Below, in pieces: positions 4,478 to 11,594 of a stretch of 39,760 bases of DNA. Position numbers and translations under genes: made by a program. The stretch lies in the IMG/VR virus record IMGVR_UViG_2711768002_000014; one strand, given 5' to 3'. Below the pieces are notes generated by a model. That model saw only the letters and a program-made list of their open reading frames with translations, had not been told where the DNA came from and ran no database searches. Numbering within the stretch: position 1 is the first letter of the stretch; each line of letters opens with the position of its first letter. Source of the stretch: a virus. Its lineage: Duplodnaviria; Heunggongvirae; Uroviricota; Caudoviricetes.

Positions 4478-5152
4478 TTAGGCCTTTATTATGTATCTTC
4501 TTGGTTTTCCTGAGAAAATCACTGTACCAATTATAGAGCAATTACCGTTAATCTTAATGTAAGGCTCAGGCCAGTTTGGGTTTAATGCTTTGAGATAACG
4601 CTGTGTTCCATCTTCTATCAACCGCTTGAAGGTGGTTTCGCCTGTATCGTGCATCAATGCAATAACGTCGTCACCGTGGCAGGCAGGGACTTCAGGATCA
4701 ACAAAAATCATGTCTCCCGGGCGGTACTCATCAATCATTGAATCACCAATCACCCGCAAGATATAAGTCATTTCGCCACAGGGTACAGGGCAGGGATAAG
4801 TTTCTGCTGTGCTCAAATCAACCTCAGAATAGCCAACTTCTTTCCATGCTCCGGCCTGTACCCATGATATGACAGGGACTAACGTTATTTGTTTGTTAGT
4901 GATTGAAACGTCAGGTTTTTTTGTGATGTTCGTTGTCTGGTGTTCTTGATCAAGCCATCCGACAGGCAGGTCGAAACATTTTTCGATGTGCCGTGCCATG
5001 CTGTCACCGATATTTTTAGTTGCACCATCTCCCATAAACCTGCTGGTCTGGGTTGGCTCGCGATCAATCATGGTGGCAAAGGAAGAATTCCCGCCAACAC
5101 CATCTCTCAGTTTTCTGGCGTTAGACCGCCGGATGTCATGGACTGTTTTCAT
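4478..5152 (-). CDS. CI-like prophage repressor (N-terminal HTH, C-terminal S24 LexA-like peptidase)
   Basis: 224 aa; C-terminal domain with the GDSM serine motif and a downstream Lys (FKRL); divergent from the cro-like gene across an operator-containing spacer. Confidence 0.85.
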   Translation of the reverse strand: MKTVHDIRRSNARKLRDGVGGNSSFATMIDREPTQTSRFMGDGATKNIGDSMARHIEKCFDLPVGWLDQEHQTTNITKKPDVSITNKQITLVPVISWVQAGAWKEVGYSEVDLSTAETYPCPVPCGEMTYILRVIGDSMIDEYRPGDMIFVDPEVPACHGDDVIALMHDTGETTFKRLIEDGTQRYLKALNPNWPEPYIKINGNCSIIGTVIFSGKPRRYIIKA

Positions 5153-5169
5153 AAAGAAATTAAAACCTT

Positions 5170-5186
5170 TGTACCGATAAGGTACA
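5170..5186. promoter_or_regulatory. operator: perfect palindrome TGTACC-gataa-GGTACA
   Basis: 17-bp dyad in the 90-bp repressor/cro intergenic region. Confidence 0.5.
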
Positions 5187-5219
5187 AGTATCTTGAAGGT
5201 TCATCTCAATCATGTAATA

Positions 5220-5236
5220 TGTATACCGGAGGTACA
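5220..5236. promoter_or_regulatory. second, weaker operator-like site TGTATA-ccgga-GGTACA
   Basis: Matches the half-site motif with two mismatches; overlaps the cro RBS (GGAGG). Confidence 0.3.
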
Positions 5237-5242
5237 TATTGT

Positions 5243-5443
5243 ATGAAAGCGTATTGGGACTCTTTAACCAAAGAACAGCAGGGTGAGTTGGCCGGAAAAG
5301 TTGGCTCAACACCAGGCTACTTACGGCTGGTTTTCAATGGTTATAAAAAAGCCAGTTTTGTGCTGGCTAAAAAACTTGAGCAATGCACGTCAGGTGCAAT
5401 TACGAAATCTGACTTAAGACCGGATATCTATCCGAAAGATTAA
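5243..5443 (+). CDS. Cro-like regulator (YdaS-like HTH)
   Basis: 66 aa; GGAGG 10 nt upstream of ATG 5243; C-terminal LRPDIYP resembles remembered YdaS-type proteins; positioned opposite the repressor. Confidence 0.65.
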   Translation: MKAYWDSLTKEQQGELAGKVGSTPGYLRLVFNGYKKASFVLAKKLEQCTSGAITKSDLRPDIYPKD

Positions 5444-5474: not shown

Positions 5475-6038
5475 ATGAGGCTAACCGTGGGTAAGCATCA
5501 CTGGAAAGTAGAAAAACAGCCTGAGTGGTACGTGAAAGCTGTCAGAAAAACTATCGCGGCGTTGCCGGGGGGTTACGCTGAAGCTGCTGAGTGGCTGGAT
5601 GTAACAGAGAACGCTTTATTCAACCGCCTTCGTGCAGATGGCGATCAGATTTTCCCGCTGGGATGGGCAATGATTTTACAGCGCGCGGCTGGCACTCACT
5701 ACATTGCGGATGCTGTCGCACAGTCTGCTGGTGGGGTGTTTGTATCGCTTCCTGAAATTGAGGAAGTAGAGAACGCCGATATAAACCAGCGCCTGCTGGA
5801 AGTCATCGAACAGATCGGGAGTTACTCAAAGCAGATTCGTTCGGCAATCGAAGATGGGGTAGTGGAGCCACACGAGCAGACAGCAATTAATGATGAGTTG
5901 TATCTGTCAATTTCGAAGCTCCAGGAGCATGCAGCACTGGTCTACAAAATCTTTTGCGCTCCAGAAAAGAGTGACGCCCGCGAGTGTGCAGCTCCGGGCG
6001 TCGTGGCGTTTTGTGTCTGTGGAGAAACTAACGCATGA
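5475..6038 (+). CDS. CII-like / YdaT-family regulatory protein
   Basis: 187-aa ORF immediately after cro; resembles the remembered phage CII (CP76/YdaT) family; start uncertain (weak RBS). Confidence 0.4.
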   Translation: MRLTVGKHHWKVEKQPEWYVKAVRKTIAALPGGYAEAAEWLDVTENALFNRLRADGDQIFPLGWAMILQRAAGTHYIADAVAQSAGGVFVSLPEIEEVENADINQRLLEVIEQIGSYSKQIRSAIEDGVVEPHEQTAINDELYLSISKLQEHAALVYKIFCAPEKSDARECAAPGVVAFCVCGETNA

Positions 6039-6871
6039 ACAGTTTAACGGCAAATAACCGTTTGTCGCAACAGCTGGTGGTCAGCGTCGCTGAACACCTG
6101 TTGTTACGGCATGAATGCAGATTACCAAATCACCTGGCTGTAAGTAACCACAGAGAACTTTACCTGACTGTGGGGGGCGAGTTGTGCAGGAACTTAACCG
6201 CTGGTTTCGTGACGGAAGAGGACTTTATGTTCATGTTATTCGTTGGGAGCCAGAAACACAGCGCGTTATCTATCTTCGCAAAGACTACCCGCATGAGTGC
6301 TTTAGTCCTTTGTGGAAATTCAGGCGTGATTTTGTTGAGTGTGAAGGACCACCAGCACATTGATTCTGCCATTCCGGGACGTTACACTGTTCAGGCACCT
6401 TATAAAGCGGGTGCCGGGATTGGCGTCCTGGAATTGATCAAGGCGATATATGACGCGCCAGCGTCTTTTTTATCGTCCGCATTTGCTCACATCAAAGTTA
6501 TGGTGGGCTGGGCGGGGGCATCGAAAGATGCGCCGGTTTCCTTGATCACCGGTTACGCCAACCCCGTTCAGTTCACCACCAGCGAAATTGGCGTTTCCGG
6601 TGGTGGAAGTATTTCACCGATCAAGGAGGCTGCCATCATGGCTACTGTCCCAGCCCTCACTCGTCTGAATGATGAAGACTTACATAAACTCAGTTATGTA
6701 ACAACTGCACTACGTGCTCTGCGCAAGGTAACTCTTTCGGATCCGCAGGCACATCAGGTTCTGGTAGAAACCCTTCTTAACTTGCAAGCTGAACGTATTC
6801 GTCTGGCGGATAAGGCTAATTTTCATATTCACCGTCTCCTGAATATCAGCGGAGGGCATCGTCATGCTTAA
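6035..6871 (+). CDS. hypothetical protein; gene model uncertain
   Basis: 278-aa ORF with ATGA overlap to the upstream gene; contains an internal AAGGAGG-ATG (6623-6640) and an alternative frame that reads as protein between 6148 and 6363. Confidence 0.3.
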   Translation: MNSLTANNRLSQQLVVSVAEHLLLRHECRLPNHLAVSNHRELYLTVGGELCRNLTAGFVTEEDFMFMLFVGSQKHSALSIFAKTTRMSALVLCGNSGVILLSVKDHQHIDSAIPGRYTVQAPYKAGAGIGVLELIKAIYDAPASFLSSAFAHIKVMVGWAGASKDAPVSLITGYANPVQFTTSEIGVSGGGSISPIKEAAIMATVPALTRLNDEDLHKLSYVTTALRALRKVTLSDPQAHQVLVETLLNLQAERIRLADKANFHIHRLLNISGGHRHA

Positions 6872-7100
6872 TCCGTTGATCCTCAATATTTGCCGTTTGC
6901 TTCAGCGTAAAAAAATATCAATTCCTACAGTTGGGCAGTGGTACACCACGCCTGCAGGGCATGTTCTACGTGTTAGCCTGGTTGACCGTGAATGCCAGAA
7001 GGTGATTTGTGAACCGCTGGGCCGTAATTACCGCGTCAGTATGCCGCTTATAGCCTTTCGCTCCGGAAAAAACATGAAGCATCTCGGAGGTGCAGCATGA
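6864..7100 (+). CDS. small hypothetical protein (78 aa)
   Basis: ORF overlapping both neighbours' ends; no recognised domain. Confidence 0.3.
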   Translation: MLNPLILNICRLLQRKKISIPTVGQWYTTPAGHVLRVSLVDRECQKVICEPLGRNYRVSMPLIAFRSGKNMKHLGGAA

Positions 7101-7915
7101 GTATGGAGCTGATGGTTAAAGCGATGAAAATTCGAGTGGGTAATCCATTGCGAAAACTGGTTCTGATCAAGCTGGCTGATAATGCCAGCGATCAGGGTGA
7201 GTGCTGGCCCAGCTACCAGCATATTGCTGACCAGTGCGAAATTAGCAAACGTTCTGTGATGAATCATATTGCGGCCCTTTGTGAGTCCGGGCTGGTAAAA
7301 AAAGTCACCCGGAAAGGTGAAAAAGGTAACTCAAGTAATATCTATCTCCTTCATCTGGATGGTGCAGGAGATTCACTAGGGGGTAGTGCAAATAATTCAC
7401 TATCTGGTGCAGCAAATTCACCAGGTAGTGCAGGAGTTGCACCAGGGGGTAGTGCAGGAGATTCACCCAGAACCAGTCACTCTTTTGAACCAGTCAAAGA
7501 ACCAGTCAATGAACCAATAGCTGTTGGTGCATCAGTTGATGAGTCCGTGCGAGTTCGTTCAAACCGACCGGAATACTCTCCGGAGTTTGAGCAGGCATGG
7601 CTGGCATATCCCAAACGTGCTGGTGGCAATTCAAAATCTGCAGCCTTCAAAGCCTGGAAAGCCCGTTTGAATGAGGGAGTAAACCCCGAAACCATGCTGG
7701 AAGGTGTGAAACGCTACGCGGGATGGGTATCTGCGATGGGTAACAGCGGCACACAATTTGTGAAACAGGCTGTCACGTTCTTTGGTCCGGATCGTCATTT
7801 CGAAGAATTCTGGGAAGTTCCTGCGGTATCTGCAGCCAGACGCGAGGACCCGTACTTCAAAGCCAGTTACGACAACGTGGACTACAGCCAGATCCCGGCA
7901 GGATTCAGGGGGTGA
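7097..7915 (+). CDS. replication initiator-like protein (N-terminal HTH of phage O / HTH_36 type) with Gly/Ser-rich linker
   Basis: N-terminus LRKLVLIKLADNASDQGECWPSYQHIADQCEISKRSVMNHIAALCESGLV is typical of phage replication-initiator wHTH domains; internal DNA direct repeats. Confidence 0.55.
   Translation: MSMELMVKAMKIRVGNPLRKLVLIKLADNASDQGECWPSYQHIADQCEISKRSVMNHIAALCESGLVKKVTRKGEKGNSSNIYLLHLDGAGDSLGGSANNSLSGAANSPGSAGVAPGGSAGDSPRTSHSFEPVKEPVNEPIAVGASVDESVRVRSNRPEYSPEFEQAWLAYPKRAGGNSKSAAFKAWKARLNEGVNPETMLEGVKRYAGWVSAMGNSGTQFVKQAVTFFGPDRHFEEFWEVPAVSAARREDPYFKASYDNVDYSQIPAGFRG
7361..7520. repeat. iteron-like direct repeats inside the initiator gene (candidate ori)
   Basis: Five degenerate ~20-bp units (GGTAGTGCAGGAGATTCACC-like) followed by four GAACCAGTCA units. 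Confidence 0.4.
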
Positions 7916-8406
7916 TCATGAGTCTTTTGAATGAAGTTCAGAAATTCATTGAAGCCCATCCGGGGTGTACTTCCGGAGACATTGCGGATGCTTTTGCAGG
8001 TTACTCACGGCAGCGCGTTCTGCAGTCAGCAAGCAAGTTACGTCAGAGTGGGCGTGTGGCTCACCGTTATGAAGGAGATACACGCAGACATTTCCCACGC
8101 CTGACTGAGAGAGCGCAGGAGCCGGAACCACAACCAGTTCGTGAAACCAGACCTGTGCGCAATTTCTATGTCGGCACTAACGATCCCCGGGTGATTTTGT
8201 GCCTGACCCGCCAGGCGGAAGAACTGGAGTCCAGGGGCTTATACCGTCGTGCTGCAACGGTGTGGATGGCGGCATTCCGTGAAAGCCACTCCCAGCCAGA
8301 ACGAAACAATTTTCTGGCGCGTCGTGAGCGGTGCTTACGGAAAAGCAGCAAGCGCGCTGCATCGGGTGAAGAGTGGTATCTGTCAGGGAATTACGTGGGG
8401 GCTTAA
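7912..8406 (+). CDS. PerC-like transcriptional activator family protein
   Basis: C-terminal LTRQAEELESRGLYRRAATVWMAAF matches the remembered PerC signature (LE..GLWRRAA..W). Confidence 0.5.
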   Translation: MIMSLLNEVQKFIEAHPGCTSGDIADAFAGYSRQRVLQSASKLRQSGRVAHRYEGDTRRHFPRLTERAQEPEPQPVRETRPVRNFYVGTNDPRVILCLTRQAEELESRGLYRRAATVWMAAFRESHSQPERNNFLARRERCLRKSSKRAASGEEWYLSGNYVGA

Positions 8407-9059
8407 TGAGTAATAAATATTGCCAGGCGCTGGTGGAGCTGCGGAACAAACCAGCCCATGAACTGAAGGAAGTGGGCGATCAGTGGCGCACGCCGGATAA
8501 CATTTTCTGGGGAATTAACACCCTGTTTGGCCCGTTTGTTCTGGATCTGTTCACTGATGGTGATAACGCCAAATGTGCCGCTTATTACACTGCGGAAGAC
8601 AACGCGCTGGCGCATGACTGGTCTGAACGTCTTGCGGAGCTTAAAGGTGCTGCCTTTGGTAATCCCCCGTACAGCCGCGCCAGTCAGCATGAAGGGCAAT
8701 ACATCACCGGCATGCGTTACATCATGAAACATGCCAGTGCCATGCGTGATAAGGGCGGACGCTATGTTTTCCTGATCAAAGCTGCCACCAGCGAAGTGTG
8801 GTGGCCGGAAGATGCAGATCATATTGCTTTTATTCGCGGGCGTATTGGTTTTGAACTGCCTGCCTGGTTTATCCCGAAGGACGAGAAGCAGGTGCCGACA
8901 GGCGCTTTCTTCGCTGGTGCTATTGCTGTTTTCGACAAGACCTGGAAGGGACCGGCAATCAGCTACATCGGGCGCGATGAACTTGAGGCATGTGGTGAGG
9001 CGTTTCTGGCGCAGGTTCGCCAGCAGGCGGAAAAACTGGTCAGGGAGATGGCGGCATGA
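8406..9059 (+). CDS. phage Dam-type N6-adenine DNA methyltransferase
   Basis: NPPY catalytic motif (FGNPPYSR); TAATG overlap with the upstream gene. Confidence 0.8.
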   Translation: MSNKYCQALVELRNKPAHELKEVGDQWRTPDNIFWGINTLFGPFVLDLFTDGDNAKCAAYYTAEDNALAHDWSERLAELKGAAFGNPPYSRASQHEGQYITGMRYIMKHASAMRDKGGRYVFLIKAATSEVWWPEDADHIAFIRGRIGFELPAWFIPKDEKQVPTGAFFAGAIAVFDKTWKGPAISYIGRDELEACGEAFLAQVRQQAEKLVREMAA

Positions 9060-9382
9060 CGACGTTAACTCAATGCCAGCAGCAGGTGCTGGATATGCTG
9101 ATTTCTTACCAGAAAGAACGTGGCTTCCCGCCAACCAATCAGGAGGTGGCAACCATGCTGGGATACCGTTCAGTGAATGCAGCGGTGGAACATCTTCGCG
9201 CACTGGAGAAAAAAGGCGTCATCACGATAAAGCGTGGCATGGCCCGGGGTATCACTCTTCATACCGCGGTGAAGGACGACGACAGCGAGGCGGTCGGGAT
9301 TATCCGCTCACTGCTTGCCGGTGAGGAAAACGCCAGGCTGCGTGCAACCCACTGGTTACATGAGAGAGGCCTGAAAGTATGA
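9056..9382 (+). CDS. LexA DNA-binding-domain-only protein
   Basis: N-terminus QQQVLDMLISYQKERGFPPTNQEVATMLGYRSVNAAVEHLRALEKKGVITI parallels the LexA N-terminal wHTH; only 108 aa, no S24 peptidase domain. Confidence 0.65.
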   Translation: MTTLTQCQQQVLDMLISYQKERGFPPTNQEVATMLGYRSVNAAVEHLRALEKKGVITIKRGMARGITLHTAVKDDDSEAVGIIRSLLAGEENARLRATHWLHERGLKV

Positions 9383-9768
9383 AGCTGATCCTGCCTTTCC
9401 CGCCCAGCGTGAACACGTACTGGCGACACCCCAACAAAGGGGCATTTGCTGGTAAGAGCCTGATAAGCGCGGCGGGGCGAAAATTTCAGAGCGCGGCGTG
9501 CGCAGCAATAGTTGAGCAGTTACGTCGTCTGCCAAAACCAACGTCGGCACCTGCTTCAGTGGAGATCGTGTTGTTTCCTCCGGATAACCGGATCCGCGAT
9601 CTGGACAACTATAACAAGGCGCTGTTTGACGCCCTGACCCACGCGGGGGTGTGGGAAGACGACAGCCAGGTGAAAAGAATGCTGGTGGAGTGGGGACCGG
9701 TTATCCAGAAAGGGAAGGTCGAGATCACTATCAGTAAGTATGAGAAACCGGCGGGTGCAGCCGCCTGA
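9379..9768 (+). CDS. rusA: RusA Holliday-junction resolvase
   Basis: 129 aa; conserved RusA motifs (LPFPPSVNTYWRH..., DLDNYNKALFDALTHAGVWEDDSQV). Confidence 0.85.
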   Translation: MKLILPFPPSVNTYWRHPNKGAFAGKSLISAAGRKFQSAACAAIVEQLRRLPKPTSAPASVEIVLFPPDNRIRDLDNYNKALFDALTHAGVWEDDSQVKRMLVEWGPVIQKGKVEITISKYEKPAGAAA

Positions 9769-9787
9769 TCAAGAGGAGAAACGAAGT

Positions 9788-10597
9788 ATGAATAATCTGA
9801 TGGTCATTGATGGTATTGAAGTTCGTCGTGATGCTTATGGGCGTTACAGCCTGAACGATCTGCACAGGGCAGCCGGGGGAGAACAAAAAAACCGCCCGAA
9901 ATACTGGCTCTCCAATAAGCAAACCTGTGAATTGATTGAACAACTTTTCACCGAGGGTGGAATTCCGCCTCTGGAACAAAATCAACCAGTTAGCGTCATT
10001 AATGGCGGAAATAACCAGGGGACGTATGTCTGCAAAGAACTGGTGTATGCCTATGCAATGTGGATCAGCCCGTCATTCCATCTGAAGGTGATCCGTACTT
10101 TCGACATGGTAACCAGCGCACCGGAAAAATTATCCGGACAGGCTGCTGACAAGATGCAGGCTGGCGTGATCCTGCTGGACTTTATGCGCCGGGAATTAAA
10201 TCTGTCTAACTCATCAGTGCTTGGAGCCTGTCAGAAGCTTCAGGAGGCTGTTGGCTTACCGAATCTGGCACCGCGCTATGCCATTGATGCTCCTGCTGAC
10301 GCGCCTGATGGCTCAAGTCGCCCCACGCTGTCGCTGAGTGCACTGCTGAAGCAGTATGGTATCCGCCTGACGGCTAATCAGGCATATCACCAGATGGTGA
10401 AGCTGGGGATCGTTGAACAACGCGAACGATACAGCCGTACCGCGATTAACAACATCAAAAAATTCTGGTCGCTGACGGCGAAAGGCTGCATGTTCGGCAA
10501 GAACATCACCAGTCCTGCAAATCCGCGCGAGACGCAGCCGCATTTCTTCGAATCCCGATTCCCTGAGCTGTTAAAGCTGCTCGATACCGTTCATTGA
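9788..10597 (+). CDS. KilA-N domain protein
   Basis: AGGAG upstream of ATG 9788; N-terminal MVIDGIEVRRDAYGRYSLNDLHRAAGG is KilA-N-like. Confidence 0.7.
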   Translation: MNNLMVIDGIEVRRDAYGRYSLNDLHRAAGGEQKNRPKYWLSNKQTCELIEQLFTEGGIPPLEQNQPVSVINGGNNQGTYVCKELVYAYAMWISPSFHLKVIRTFDMVTSAPEKLSGQAADKMQAGVILLDFMRRELNLSNSSVLGACQKLQEAVGLPNLAPRYAIDAPADAPDGSSRPTLSLSALLKQYGIRLTANQAYHQMVKLGIVEQRERYSRTAINNIKKFWSLTAKGCMFGKNITSPANPRETQPHFFESRFPELLKLLDTVH

Positions 10598-10598
10598 G

Positions 10599-11594
10599 GT
10601 GACCGTGAGAGCACTACTGACCCCTGAAATTGCCCCGCGTATGGGGATCGTATTGTTCAGGCCAGGTTCAGAGCTGATGCCCCTGTTTATGCAGGGGCGT
10701 GTTCTGCTGGAGCCTGAGCCGGAACGTTATTCATCTTTCGCCAGTGGTGCCGTTCCGGCGGCATCACAACCGCTGGCGGATGATCCTGCCGTTCGGGCCG
10801 TGTTCCGCAATGAGGCAGTGATCCGTCGTGCTGGTGGCGTGGAATGTCTTGAAAGCTGGTTACTTCGTGAAAAAGGCTGCCAGTGGCCTCATTCCGACTG
10901 GCACAGCGAGAACATGACCACAATGCGACACGCTCCGGGCGCAATCCGTCTGTGCTGGCACTGCGATAACCAGCTGCGCGATCAGTTCACGGAACGGCTG
11001 GAATCAATGGCAACGGATAACTGTGCCCGCTGGGTGTTGTCTGTTGTGCGTCGGGATCTCGGTTTTGATGATAGTCACGTTGTGACAATGCCGGAACTGT
11101 GCTGGTGGCTGATTCGTAATGACCTGGCGGATGCCTTACCGGAAAGTGCAGCCCGTAAGGCACTGAGATTACCAAAGCCTGTTGTGCCGTCTGTCACCCG
11201 GGAAAGTGACCTTGTGCCTTCGGTTCCTGCCACCAGCATCATCCAGGATAAGGCAAAAAAGGTGCTGGCGCTGAAAGTGGATCCGGAGTCGCCGGAGTCT
11301 TTTATGTTACGCCCAAAACGCCGCCGCTGGGTTAATGAAAAGTACACGCGCTGGGTTAAGACACAGCCGTGTGCATGTTGTGGAAAGCCTGCTGATGATC
11401 CCCACCACCTGATAGGCCACGGTCAGGGTGGAATGGGTACAAAAGCGCATGACCTCTTTGTGTTGCCTTTGTGCAGAAAGCATCACGACGAGCTGCATGC
11501 GGATACCGTGGCATTTGAAGAGAAGTATGGCTCCCAGCTGGAGCTGATATTTCGTTTTATCGATCGTGCGCTGGCAATTGGCGTATTGGCGTAA
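10599..11594 (+). CDS. DUF968-family protein (YdfU-like) with C-terminal Cys/His cluster
   Basis: CACCGKPADDPHHLIGHGQGG...CRKHHDELH; immediately upstream of Q as in Qin; GTG start as given by the track, uncertain. Confidence 0.6.
   Translation: MTVRALLTPEIAPRMGIVLFRPGSELMPLFMQGRVLLEPEPERYSSFASGAVPAASQPLADDPAVRAVFRNEAVIRRAGGVECLESWLLREKGCQWPHSDWHSENMTTMRHAPGAIRLCWHCDNQLRDQFTERLESMATDNCARWVLSVVRRDLGFDDSHVVTMPELCWWLIRNDLADALPESAARKALRLPKPVVPSVTRESDLVPSVPATSIIQDKAKKVLALKVDPESPESFMLRPKRRRWVNEKYTRWVKTQPCACCGKPADDPHHLIGHGQGGMGTKAHDLFVLPLCRKHHDELHADTVAFEEKYGSQLELIFRFIDRALAIGVLA

Follow-up and report, generated by a model that had tools for sequence, protein, structure and literature searches.

We analyzed a viral DNA stretch of 39,760 nucleotides (nt) (IMG/VR record IMGVR_UViG_2711768002_000014, Caudoviricetes), which at its full length is called the window here, and focused on its 837-nt open reading frame (ORF) at 6035-6871, a stop-free frame of 278 codons that carries the database label "ash family protein". 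This ORF is most probably a composite locus of an early rightward operon, in which a leader, a DUF4222 gene, a mobile RNA cassette of ~300 nt and a cargo gene for a 77-amino acid (aa) protein follow each other in the design of P1 immI, P4 CI and Gifsy-1 isrK. A first-pass annotation, made from the letters alone, had supposed several units rather than a single 278-aa protein, and a DUF4222 gene, an RNA cassette and a cargo gene were indeed found (Table 1). The nature of the middle part had been overlooked; that is, the stretch that reads poorly as protein, together with the entire Pfam Ash domain, is a structured-RNA cassette (6360-6637) consisting of an isrK-like RNA and a C4 antisense RNA. 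The RNA switch behind the "Ash" domain is the decisive feature of the locus and is invisible to a reader without tools. The 278-codon frame is referred to below as frame 0 or the long frame.

A structured RNA cassette coincides with the Ash domain

Pfam Phage_ASH (PF10554) matched the frame-0 translation with 67.8 bits (cut-off 26) at residues 117-210, corresponding to nt 6383-6664. The isrK and C4 matches both lie inside this span, which is made up of these RNAs and the downstream targets of C4. The isrK-like small RNA (sRNA) contains the upstream target sites a1 and b1 and ends in an intrinsic terminator; C4 contains the complementary segments a' and b', and the second pair of target sites, a2 and b2, follows it. 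The matches are 7 nt long at the a sites and 9 nt long at the b sites, and b2 overlaps the Shine-Dalgarno sequence AAGGAGG (6623-6629) of ATG 6638. The C4 core duplex with 6584-6645 had an energy of -39.4 kcal/mol (z = -6.6 versus shuffles), and a second C4-target duplex reached -30.5 kcal/mol (z = -3.9 versus shuffles).

A pattern scan of viral contigs yielded about 100 unique C4 loci. The three-helix fold of C4 showed compensatory changes at 15 of its 26 pairs in 36 sequences, with hairpin 1 covarying at 5/5 pairs. Across 52 distinct b' loops, b1 and b2 varied in step with b' at fixed positions, and the a sites behaved likewise. At the 5' edge of the cassette, two promoter-like hexamers are conserved among cassettes and align with the TTGACA...TATATT region ahead of Gifsy-1 isrK, suggesting by positional homology a promoter at 6360-6388. 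In Ash proteins, the conserved "IDSAI.GRYTV" motif corresponds to these same hexamers. We infer that the "Ash" Pfam domain is the conceptual translation of the RNA cassette.

Table 1. Positions of the features of the locus in the window, with the basis on which each was assigned
Feature	Position	Strand	Basis or remark
Stop-free 278-codon frame (frame 0; SfV orf37)	6035..6871	+	ATG 6035 to TAA 6869-6871; composite
Leader segment	6035..6183	+	Frame 0 stop-free; no protein signature
G6 run, Shine-Dalgarno-like, 6 nt upstream of GTG 6184	6172..6177	+	Conservation of length and start
DUF4222 gene, 59 aa	6184..6363	+	-1 frame relative to the long ORF; Pfam PF13973, phrog_1343, pN/pS, PGAP
GTG in frame 0	6341..6343	+	Where other cassettes start a 176-aa "Ash" ORF model; phrog_3960 begins here
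Promoter-like TTGATT-17 nt-TACACT	6360..6388	+	5' edge of portable cassette; positional homology to the Gifsy-1 isrK promoter
isrK-like sRNA	6395..6471	+	Rfam RF01394 (isrK Hfq-binding sRNA), 64.2 bits (gathering score 50)
Upstream C4 targets a1 and b1	a1 6420-6426; b1 6435-6443	+	Inside isrK-like RNA
Intrinsic terminator of isrK-like RNA	hairpin 6452-6465; T6 6466-6471	+	Terminator scan
C4 antisense RNA	6496..6583	+	Rfam RF01695 (P1/P7 c4, P4 CI; clan CL00128), 82.3 bits (gathering score 45), full-length model 1-87
ATG in frame 0	6500..6502	+	5' end of C4; equivalent of first AUG of Gifsy-1 orf45
C4 b' segment, hairpin 2 loop	6539-6547	+	Complementary to b1 and b2
C4 a' segment	6555-6561	+	Complementary to a1 and a2
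Downstream C4 targets a2 and b2 (segment 6588..6629)	a2 6588-6594; b2 6619-6627	+	
Cargo gene, 77-aa protein	6638..6871	+	Predicted helical hairpin; codon-position bias
orf38, 78-aa weak DUF4222 paralogue	6864..7100	+	phrog_1153; just upstream of replication gene 7097-7915

DUF4222 is the selected frame upstream of the cassette

The first-pass annotation had pointed to a protein-like alternative frame over the 5' part of the ORF. This frame is open from 6148 to TGA 6361-6363 as described; however, it is the -1 frame relative to the long ORF and not the +1 frame. From GTG 6184, it encodes exactly the Trp-rich peptide quoted there, MQELNRWFRDGRGLYVHVIRWEPETQRVIYLRKDYPHECFSPLWKFRRDFVECEGPPAH. Its protein-like character was borne out by Pfam PF13973 (51.1 bits; cut-off 27), by phrog_1343, which matched over 59/59 positions, and by a separate coding sequence (CDS) in PGAP annotation. 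A sequence search of DUF4222 against PDB found nothing.

In 23 close relatives, the ratio of nonsynonymous to synonymous variation (pN/pS) was 0.17 for the DUF4222 frame versus 1.55 when the same bases are read in the long frame, with 0.43 for the ymfL control; the third codon position of the DUF4222 frame holds 21 of the 37 distinct point variants. A wider comparison was made with 15 pairs from six lineages (the window, e14 and the contigs L004, L116, L007 and L125), down to 60% nt identity. The DUF4222 frame had a pN/pS of 0.06-0.40 and an aa identity of 64-96% in all 15 pairs, whereas the long frame over this segment had values of 1.06-8.5 and 28-78% and was no better than the never-coding third frame. 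These results indicate that DUF4222 is a genuine gene under purifying selection and the selected frame here.

The G6 run ahead of the DUF4222 start does exist, though it occupies 6172-6177 and not 6171-6176 as first reported. It was G6 in 79 of 80 viral contigs, the remaining one reading GGGTGG, a substitution, and G5 or G7 occurred in none of them; no indel was present at the run among the 23 aligned relatives. The search for relatives with DUF4222 returned near-identical copies only (97-98%), which are informative on the length of the G run and not on divergence. At the place of the run, L125, L079 and L007 carry GGGGGA, e14 and L091 carry AAGGAGA followed by a TTG start, and L004, L026 and L116 carry AGGT followed by an ATG start. 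In every lineage compared, the DUF4222 start, whether GTG, TTG or ATG, is four codons ahead of the conserved NRWF motif, and DUF4222 homology blocks in unrelated contexts start exactly at 6182-6185. Because the length of the run is invariant and the start codon is fixed across lineages, the run is best read, and most simply, as the Shine-Dalgarno sequence of GTG 6184. A sequencing error or a phase-variable homopolymer was ruled out by the constant length. Programmed -1 frameshifting was rejected because the in-phase heptamer G GGG GGC is not conserved, whereas an independent start with its own Shine-Dalgarno sequence is.

The frame over the cassette is kept open without amino-acid constraint

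Within the cassette (6364-6637), pN/pS was 0.86, 0.87 and 0.87 in the three frames, and the 211 distinct variants were distributed over codon positions 1, 2 and 3 as 71/71/69, compared with 130/36/28 in the ymfL control. The long frame had no codon periodicity in 6038-6183 or 6364-6637. Phage_ASH, regarded as a protein domain, likewise lacked codon periodicity, and its frame-0 pN/pS was not below that of the other frames. Frame 0 thus does not evolve in the manner of a protein, but its openness is clearly maintained. None of the 23 close relatives has a stop in it, and a scan of genome contigs with the 278-aa translation returned a single locus, in Citrobacter braakii. Among 49 unique cassettes (those at least 60% identical to that of the window), frame 0 was stop-free over ~300 nt in 44, and either other frame in 0/49; the other two frames had acquired stops at 36 distinct alignment positions each. 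After clustering at 80% identity, frame 0 was open in 14 of 16 clusters and each other frame in none (0/16). Stops were likewise absent from frame 0 over DUF4222 in 8/8 lineages and in the leaders of e14 and the window, which are not homologous to each other. The in-frame ATG of the cargo was dropped as independent evidence of selection, because this ATG and roughly eight codons are inherited with the cassette.

Two internal positions may serve as entries to frame 0. The ORF from ATG 6500, at the 5' end of C4, has 123 codons, and phrog_4908 (123 aa) starts at the same residue. At the position of GTG 6341, the contigs L026, L051 and L116 have an ATG at -191 from the anchor, preceded by GGGAGGTG. 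That frame 0 stays stop-free while its amino acids are unconstrained suggests that ribosomes pass through it; this read-through may have been selected as an act of translation and not for its peptide, which would fit orf45 of Gifsy-1.

We also observed lineages (L014, L071, L115 and L117; L039, L061, L110 and L120; L044, L096 and L123) in which a 1-nt change shifts the Shine-Dalgarno-driven cargo (64-81 aa) to another frame. In these same lineages, the cassette frame is still stop-free through the cargo into the next gene, over 412-1216 nt.

The cargo gene and the portability of the cassette

An internal start had been suspected from the AAGGAGG at 6623-6629 and the in-frame ATG at 6638-6640, 8 nt apart, and it proved to be real, since the cargo gene begins there. 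Variants of the cargo gene were distributed over codon positions 1/2/3 as 12/2/14, and AlphaFold2 predicted a confident helical hairpin (pLDDT 83.7). Family searches of the cargo in Pfam, NCBIfam, PHROGs, PADLOC and PDB sequences gave no informative match, BLASTP gave no alignment with P4 epsilon, and Foldseek against PDB and BFVD found generic helical hairpins only (E > 0.1). By its position, the cargo would be the output that the switch regulates. Judging from sister loci, the cargos there weakly suggest that it might act on the lysis-lysogeny or the replication decision.

Homology between loci breaks at ~6351-6359 and at ~6652-6662. Elsewhere, the cargos after ~6662 are Rha-type regulators of 120-194 aa, a 75-aa P4-epsilon-like derepression protein or uncharacterised proteins of 62-81 aa, and sister prophages with the same flanks have a Rha gene in place of the cargo of the window. 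In Stx phages, the cassette is located in the nin region ahead of ant. These breaks and the differing cargos therefore indicate that the cassette is portable.

Several contigs carry two or three tandem isrK/C4 cassettes (L051, ~9640-11245; L026, 4358-5499; L116, 4666-5625; L100, 7696-8416), each combining a b' specificity loop of its own with a Rha-type cargo, which suggests arrays of independently addressed RNA switches. In L004, the Stx1a phage Stx1_14040, the CDS at 1004-2026 is annotated as a 340-aa "phage antirepressor Ant"; it is in fact a DUF4222 shadow frame, an Ash cassette and a Rha-type cargo.

Comparison with known systems

The closest counterpart is Gifsy-1, where isrK (79 bits), c4-a1b1 (48.1 bits) and C4 (69 bits) lie upstream of the antirepressor-like STM2616, i.e., anrP. 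All three Rfam families match both loci (c4-a1b1 below threshold in the window), and the parts have the same order on one strand: a promoter (a promoter-like site in the window), isrK (equivalent to a1/b1) with its terminator, the C4-type RNA (STnc1160), a Shine-Dalgarno sequence overlapped by b2, and the cargo. Gifsy-1 orf45 has 45 codons and overlaps anrP at AUGA; its first AUG, which falls at nt 107 of the isrK transcript and at the 5' end of C4, opens the same frame as ATG 6500 of the window. orf45 is translated, the translation of anrP requires that of orf45, and orf45 is conserved in nucleotides and not in amino acids (Hershko-Shalev et al. 2016, PMC4825925). The loci differ in their setting, as that of Gifsy-1 adjoins the Q antiterminator gene, whereas that of the window is located between the CII-like and replication genes. 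They also differ in their cargo: AnrP follows the AUGA of orf45, whereas the frame of the window continues in phase into the unrelated 77-aa cargo. Unlike the Gifsy-1 frame, that of the window reaches upstream over DUF4222 to the ymfL stop, and its promoter hexamers are weaker.

The immI region of P1/P7 comprises the c4 antisense RNA, icd and ant1/ant2. Its c4 operon is said to have been described by Citron and Schuster in 1990 and by Biere et al. in 1992. The window would share with immI the co-transcription of C4 with its target, and it shares the placement of the sites, with a1/b1 upstream, a2/b2 downstream and b2 at the ribosome-binding site of the first ORF. The cargo, however, resembles neither Icd nor Ant in sequence or fold, and the host element is a lambdoid prophage and not the P1 plasmid-prophage. 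Unlike immI, the window has an isrK-type terminator between b1 and C4.

The immunity factor of P4 is the CI RNA and not a protein; it acts chiefly through premature transcription termination, and its sites, seqA, seqB and seqC, are upstream of the derepression gene epsilon. P4 has the same three Rfam families in the same order, followed by a small derepression-type gene, and the same stop-free frame over the RNA, which is the source of the Pfam "Ash" domain. Phage_ASH matches the obsolete P4 ORF "cI gene product (AA 1-137)", directly over the CI/C4 RNA, and epsilon is PF25738, separate from Phage_ASH (8168-8584(-) and 7888-8175(-) in L130). P4 differs in that its frame begins downstream of seqA and in that its cargo, epsilon (PF25738), is unrelated to the 77-aa protein of the window.

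The ymfL-ymfM-ymfN region of e14 resembles the window at its 5' side. The ymfL genes are 88.6% identical at the nt level, the ATGA-coupled frame-0 ORF starts with "MNSLT", and its -1 frame contains a DUF4222 ORF homologous to that of the window. The e14 region is without the isrK/C4 cassette, the cargo and orf38, and ymfM (112 codons) stops just before the replication-type ymfN. In e14 comparisons, pN/pS was 0.29-0.40 for the DUF4222 frame versus 1.5-1.7, and only the DUF4222 frame was under purifying selection. About 2,000 E. coli genomes carry the e14-type locus under the PGAP label DUF4222.

The K-12 ymfM (L128 2323-2681, corresponding to 6035-6363 of the window) is curated as a 112-aa "cell division inhibitor" and holds DUF4222 in its -1 frame, which starts at 2502 with AAGGAGA-N7-TTG and stops at 2679-2681. 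In the ymfM preprint, the entire ORF was cloned, and mutants of the start codon, the stop codon or the frame were not mentioned as far as a term search of the text could show. Therefore, the filamentation activity of YmfM may possibly come from the DUF4222 peptide.

Proposed mechanism

In the composite locus, DUF4222 would be translated from GTG 6184 by means of the G-rich Shine-Dalgarno sequence. The promoter-like site would produce an isrK-like sRNA that carries a1 and b1 and is ended by the intrinsic terminator. Transcripts that pass the terminator would carry C4, whose a' and b' segments may pair with the downstream sites a2 and b2 of the same strand. Because b2 overlaps AAGGAGG, we propose that free C4 RNA would block translation of the cargo, with the Shine-Dalgarno sequence of ATG 6638 covered, and that the isrK-like RNA, having the same a1/b1 sequences, would titrate C4 or compete with it. 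By homology with the systems studied experimentally in P1, P4 and Gifsy-1, repression of the cargo by C4 is likely, as is relief of this repression by the isrK-like RNA.

Ribosomes would enter frame 0 at ATG 6500, the equivalent of orf45, and possibly at GTG 6341 or ATG 6035. More tentatively, and as a joint proposal that we hold to be rather doubtful as a whole, the Ash frame would be a translated but sequence-unconstrained ORF in which ribosome transit is the regulatory input, and the product of the ymfM position would be the 59-aa DUF4222 peptide, with the SOS-inducible inhibitor assigned to YmfM perhaps encoded in the other frame. In this proposal, ribosomes that set out at the ymfL stop, at GTG 6341 or at the AUG within C4 would keep C4 from folding and pairing in cis, and would tie translation of the early operon to expression of the cargo.

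Alternative readings

Several points weigh against the composite reading. Rfam c4-a1b1 (RF03163) scored 21.4 bits at 6382-6434, under its gathering score of 46.7, although the a1/b1 sites are present by complementarity despite this. The promoter-like hexamers fit 8/12 consensus positions and did not reach the threshold of a generic scan. No similarity of the cargo to Icd, Ant, Rha or P4 epsilon was detected. Pairwise pN/pS of the leader was ambiguous, at 0.41 in frame 0 and 1.29 and 0.50 in the other frames. Other cassettes carry a good Shine-Dalgarno sequence and an ATG where the window has GTG 6341, and in L004 the Shine-Dalgarno sequence of the long-frame ATG (1004) is better than that of the DUF4222 ATG (1021). 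All four indel events in 6035-6662 among the close relatives are multiples of three in MAFFT alignments, which alone were used for this purpose because the indels derived from BLAST inside the cassette were artefacts of swapped b1/b2 segments. In this phage, the transcription starts, the processing of C4 and the repression of the 77-aa gene are deduced from homology.

The in-frame indels would fit one conventional 278-aa protein, the "Ash family" regulator of SfV orf37, to which the DUF4222 and RNA matches would be incidental. This reading also draws on the frame being open in 23/23 close relatives and in Citrobacter, on the Phage_ASH score and on more than 2,000 matching database proteins, most of those listed at the top being 278 aa long. 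Homologues that keep the full 278-codon frame, named in the first-pass annotation as the finding that would speak for one protein, therefore do exist; they do not rescue such a protein, as selection at the amino-acid level is lacking. Over the DUF4222 segment, the pN/pS of the long frame (1.06-8.5) stands against 0.06-0.40 for the DUF4222 frame, and in the cassette all frames are equal and codon periodicity is absent. The conserved "residues" fall on the promoter hexamers, RNA stems and intrinsic terminator; P4 carries the same Pfam domain over its CI RNA, itself the immunity factor; and the cassette edges split the ORF at ~6355 and ~6660. Taken with these data, a single protein is very improbable. 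A frameshifted gene, an idea also raised at first and taken here as either a G6 error or a programmed -1 slip that would join the N-terminal 46 codons to the DUF4222 frame to give ~109 aa, did not hold. One added G does join the frames, as had been noted, and yields a 109-aa ORF; G GGG GGC formally fits the X XXY YYZ heptamer pattern in the zero frame, and the alternative frame is already open ahead of the run, from 6148. However, the length of the run is invariant (79/80 contigs with G6, 23 relatives without an indel) and the DUF4222 start is conserved at the same codon; e14, L091, L004, L026 and L116 do without G6 and start at a TTG or ATG at that codon, with a purine-rich Shine-Dalgarno sequence of their own. 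DUF4222 homology begins only at 6182-6185, the leader is non-periodic and nothing stable that could stimulate slippage folds downstream of the run (z = +0.61), leaving this explanation with hardly any credibility.

Frame 0 might also be never translated and stay open as a passive by-product of RNA conservation, the codon usage of the overlapped small genes and shared descent. Long shadow ORFs are common in the window (266 aa and 167 aa), the cargo ATG and roughly eight codons are part of the cassette, such that their in-frame relation is inherited, and the leader shows no periodicity. We consider this unlikely, since the other frames have gained stops at 36 positions each while frame 0 is open in 44/49 cassettes and 14/16 clusters, since Gifsy-1 orf45 was found experimentally to be translated in the same frame, and since frame 0 also lacks stops over DUF4222 (8/8 lineages) and in the e14 and window leaders, non-homologous as these are. 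A composite locus with a frame probably kept open for ribosome transit is the reading that we retain.

Genomic setting and gene models

The window is of the SfV/e14-like lambdoid prophage type, and 5475-7915 is 99.0% identical to Shigella phage SfV. The 837-nt ORF is SfV orf37, labelled there "immunity region" or "transcriptional regulator". Its ATG 6035 overlaps the TGA of the upstream neighbour ymfL (ATGA 6035-6038), which is CII-like (Pfam Phage_CP76; NCBIfam YmfL, 169 bits). Downstream are a 78-aa ORF and a replication protein at 7097-7915 with HTH_36 and DnaD_N domains. Many identical copies are present in complete E. coli genomes, with 1,583 matching records in all. PGAP annotates two CDSs on identical E. 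coli copies, namely DUF4222 (6184-6363 of the window) and an overlapping "ash family protein" in the long frame from GTG 6326 to 6871, and leaves 6039-6183 unannotated.

The leader (6035-6183) had no match in Pfam, NCBIfam or PHROG. Its 54 distinct variants were distributed over the codon positions as 15/20/19, i.e., without periodicity, and its sequence is unrelated to that of the e14 leader beyond ~12 codons.

The 78-aa ORF, orf38, is 24% identical to DUF4222 (pairwise E = 0.014), and phrog_1343 and phrog_1153 cross-match. As orf38 is a weak paralogue of DUF4222, the cassette with its cargo has DUF4222-like genes on both flanks. In e14, which is without the cassette, one DUF4222 gene adjoins the replication gene. 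Long shadow ORFs also lie over evidently real genes of the opposite strand or of a different frame elsewhere in the window, namely 8403-9203(-) (266 aa) over the gene at 8373-9059(+), and 4940-5443(+) (167 aa); therefore, ORF length alone is a poor guide in this prophage.

Implications

These results correct a gene model present in about 1,500 complete E. coli genomes and in many Stx, SfV and lambdoid phages, where the label "transcriptional regulator" or Ash protein covers a DUF4222 gene, an isrK/C4 antisense-RNA switch and a small cargo gene. The type of switch is already known; the 77-aa cargo of this cassette, which adjoins a DUF4222 gene, was previously undescribed. Beyond re-annotation, PF10554 probably represents the conceptual translation of an RNA cassette, in a frame that stays open although its amino acids are unconstrained, and a conserved DUF4222 peptide is encoded at the ymfM position, in the other frame. 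If ribosome transit through the Ash frame is indeed the regulatory input, thousands of "Ash family proteins" and PF10554 itself would be an RNA switch and not a protein domain. A survey of P4 satellites used PF10554 as the marker of epsilon (PMC8628076); since PF10554 lies over the P4 CI/C4 RNA, this survey in effect detected the RNA immunity cassette. In Stx phages, an "Ash domain" of unknown function has been reported (PMC8951638).

The finding also raises doubt over which frame of ymfM encodes the published cell-division inhibitor. An open frame over structured RNAs without amino-acid constraint is an oddity that can be tested directly. Finally, because sister loci carry Rha-type or derepression cargos, a C4-type switch in the immunity/replication region of SfV-like prophages points to an unstudied control step.

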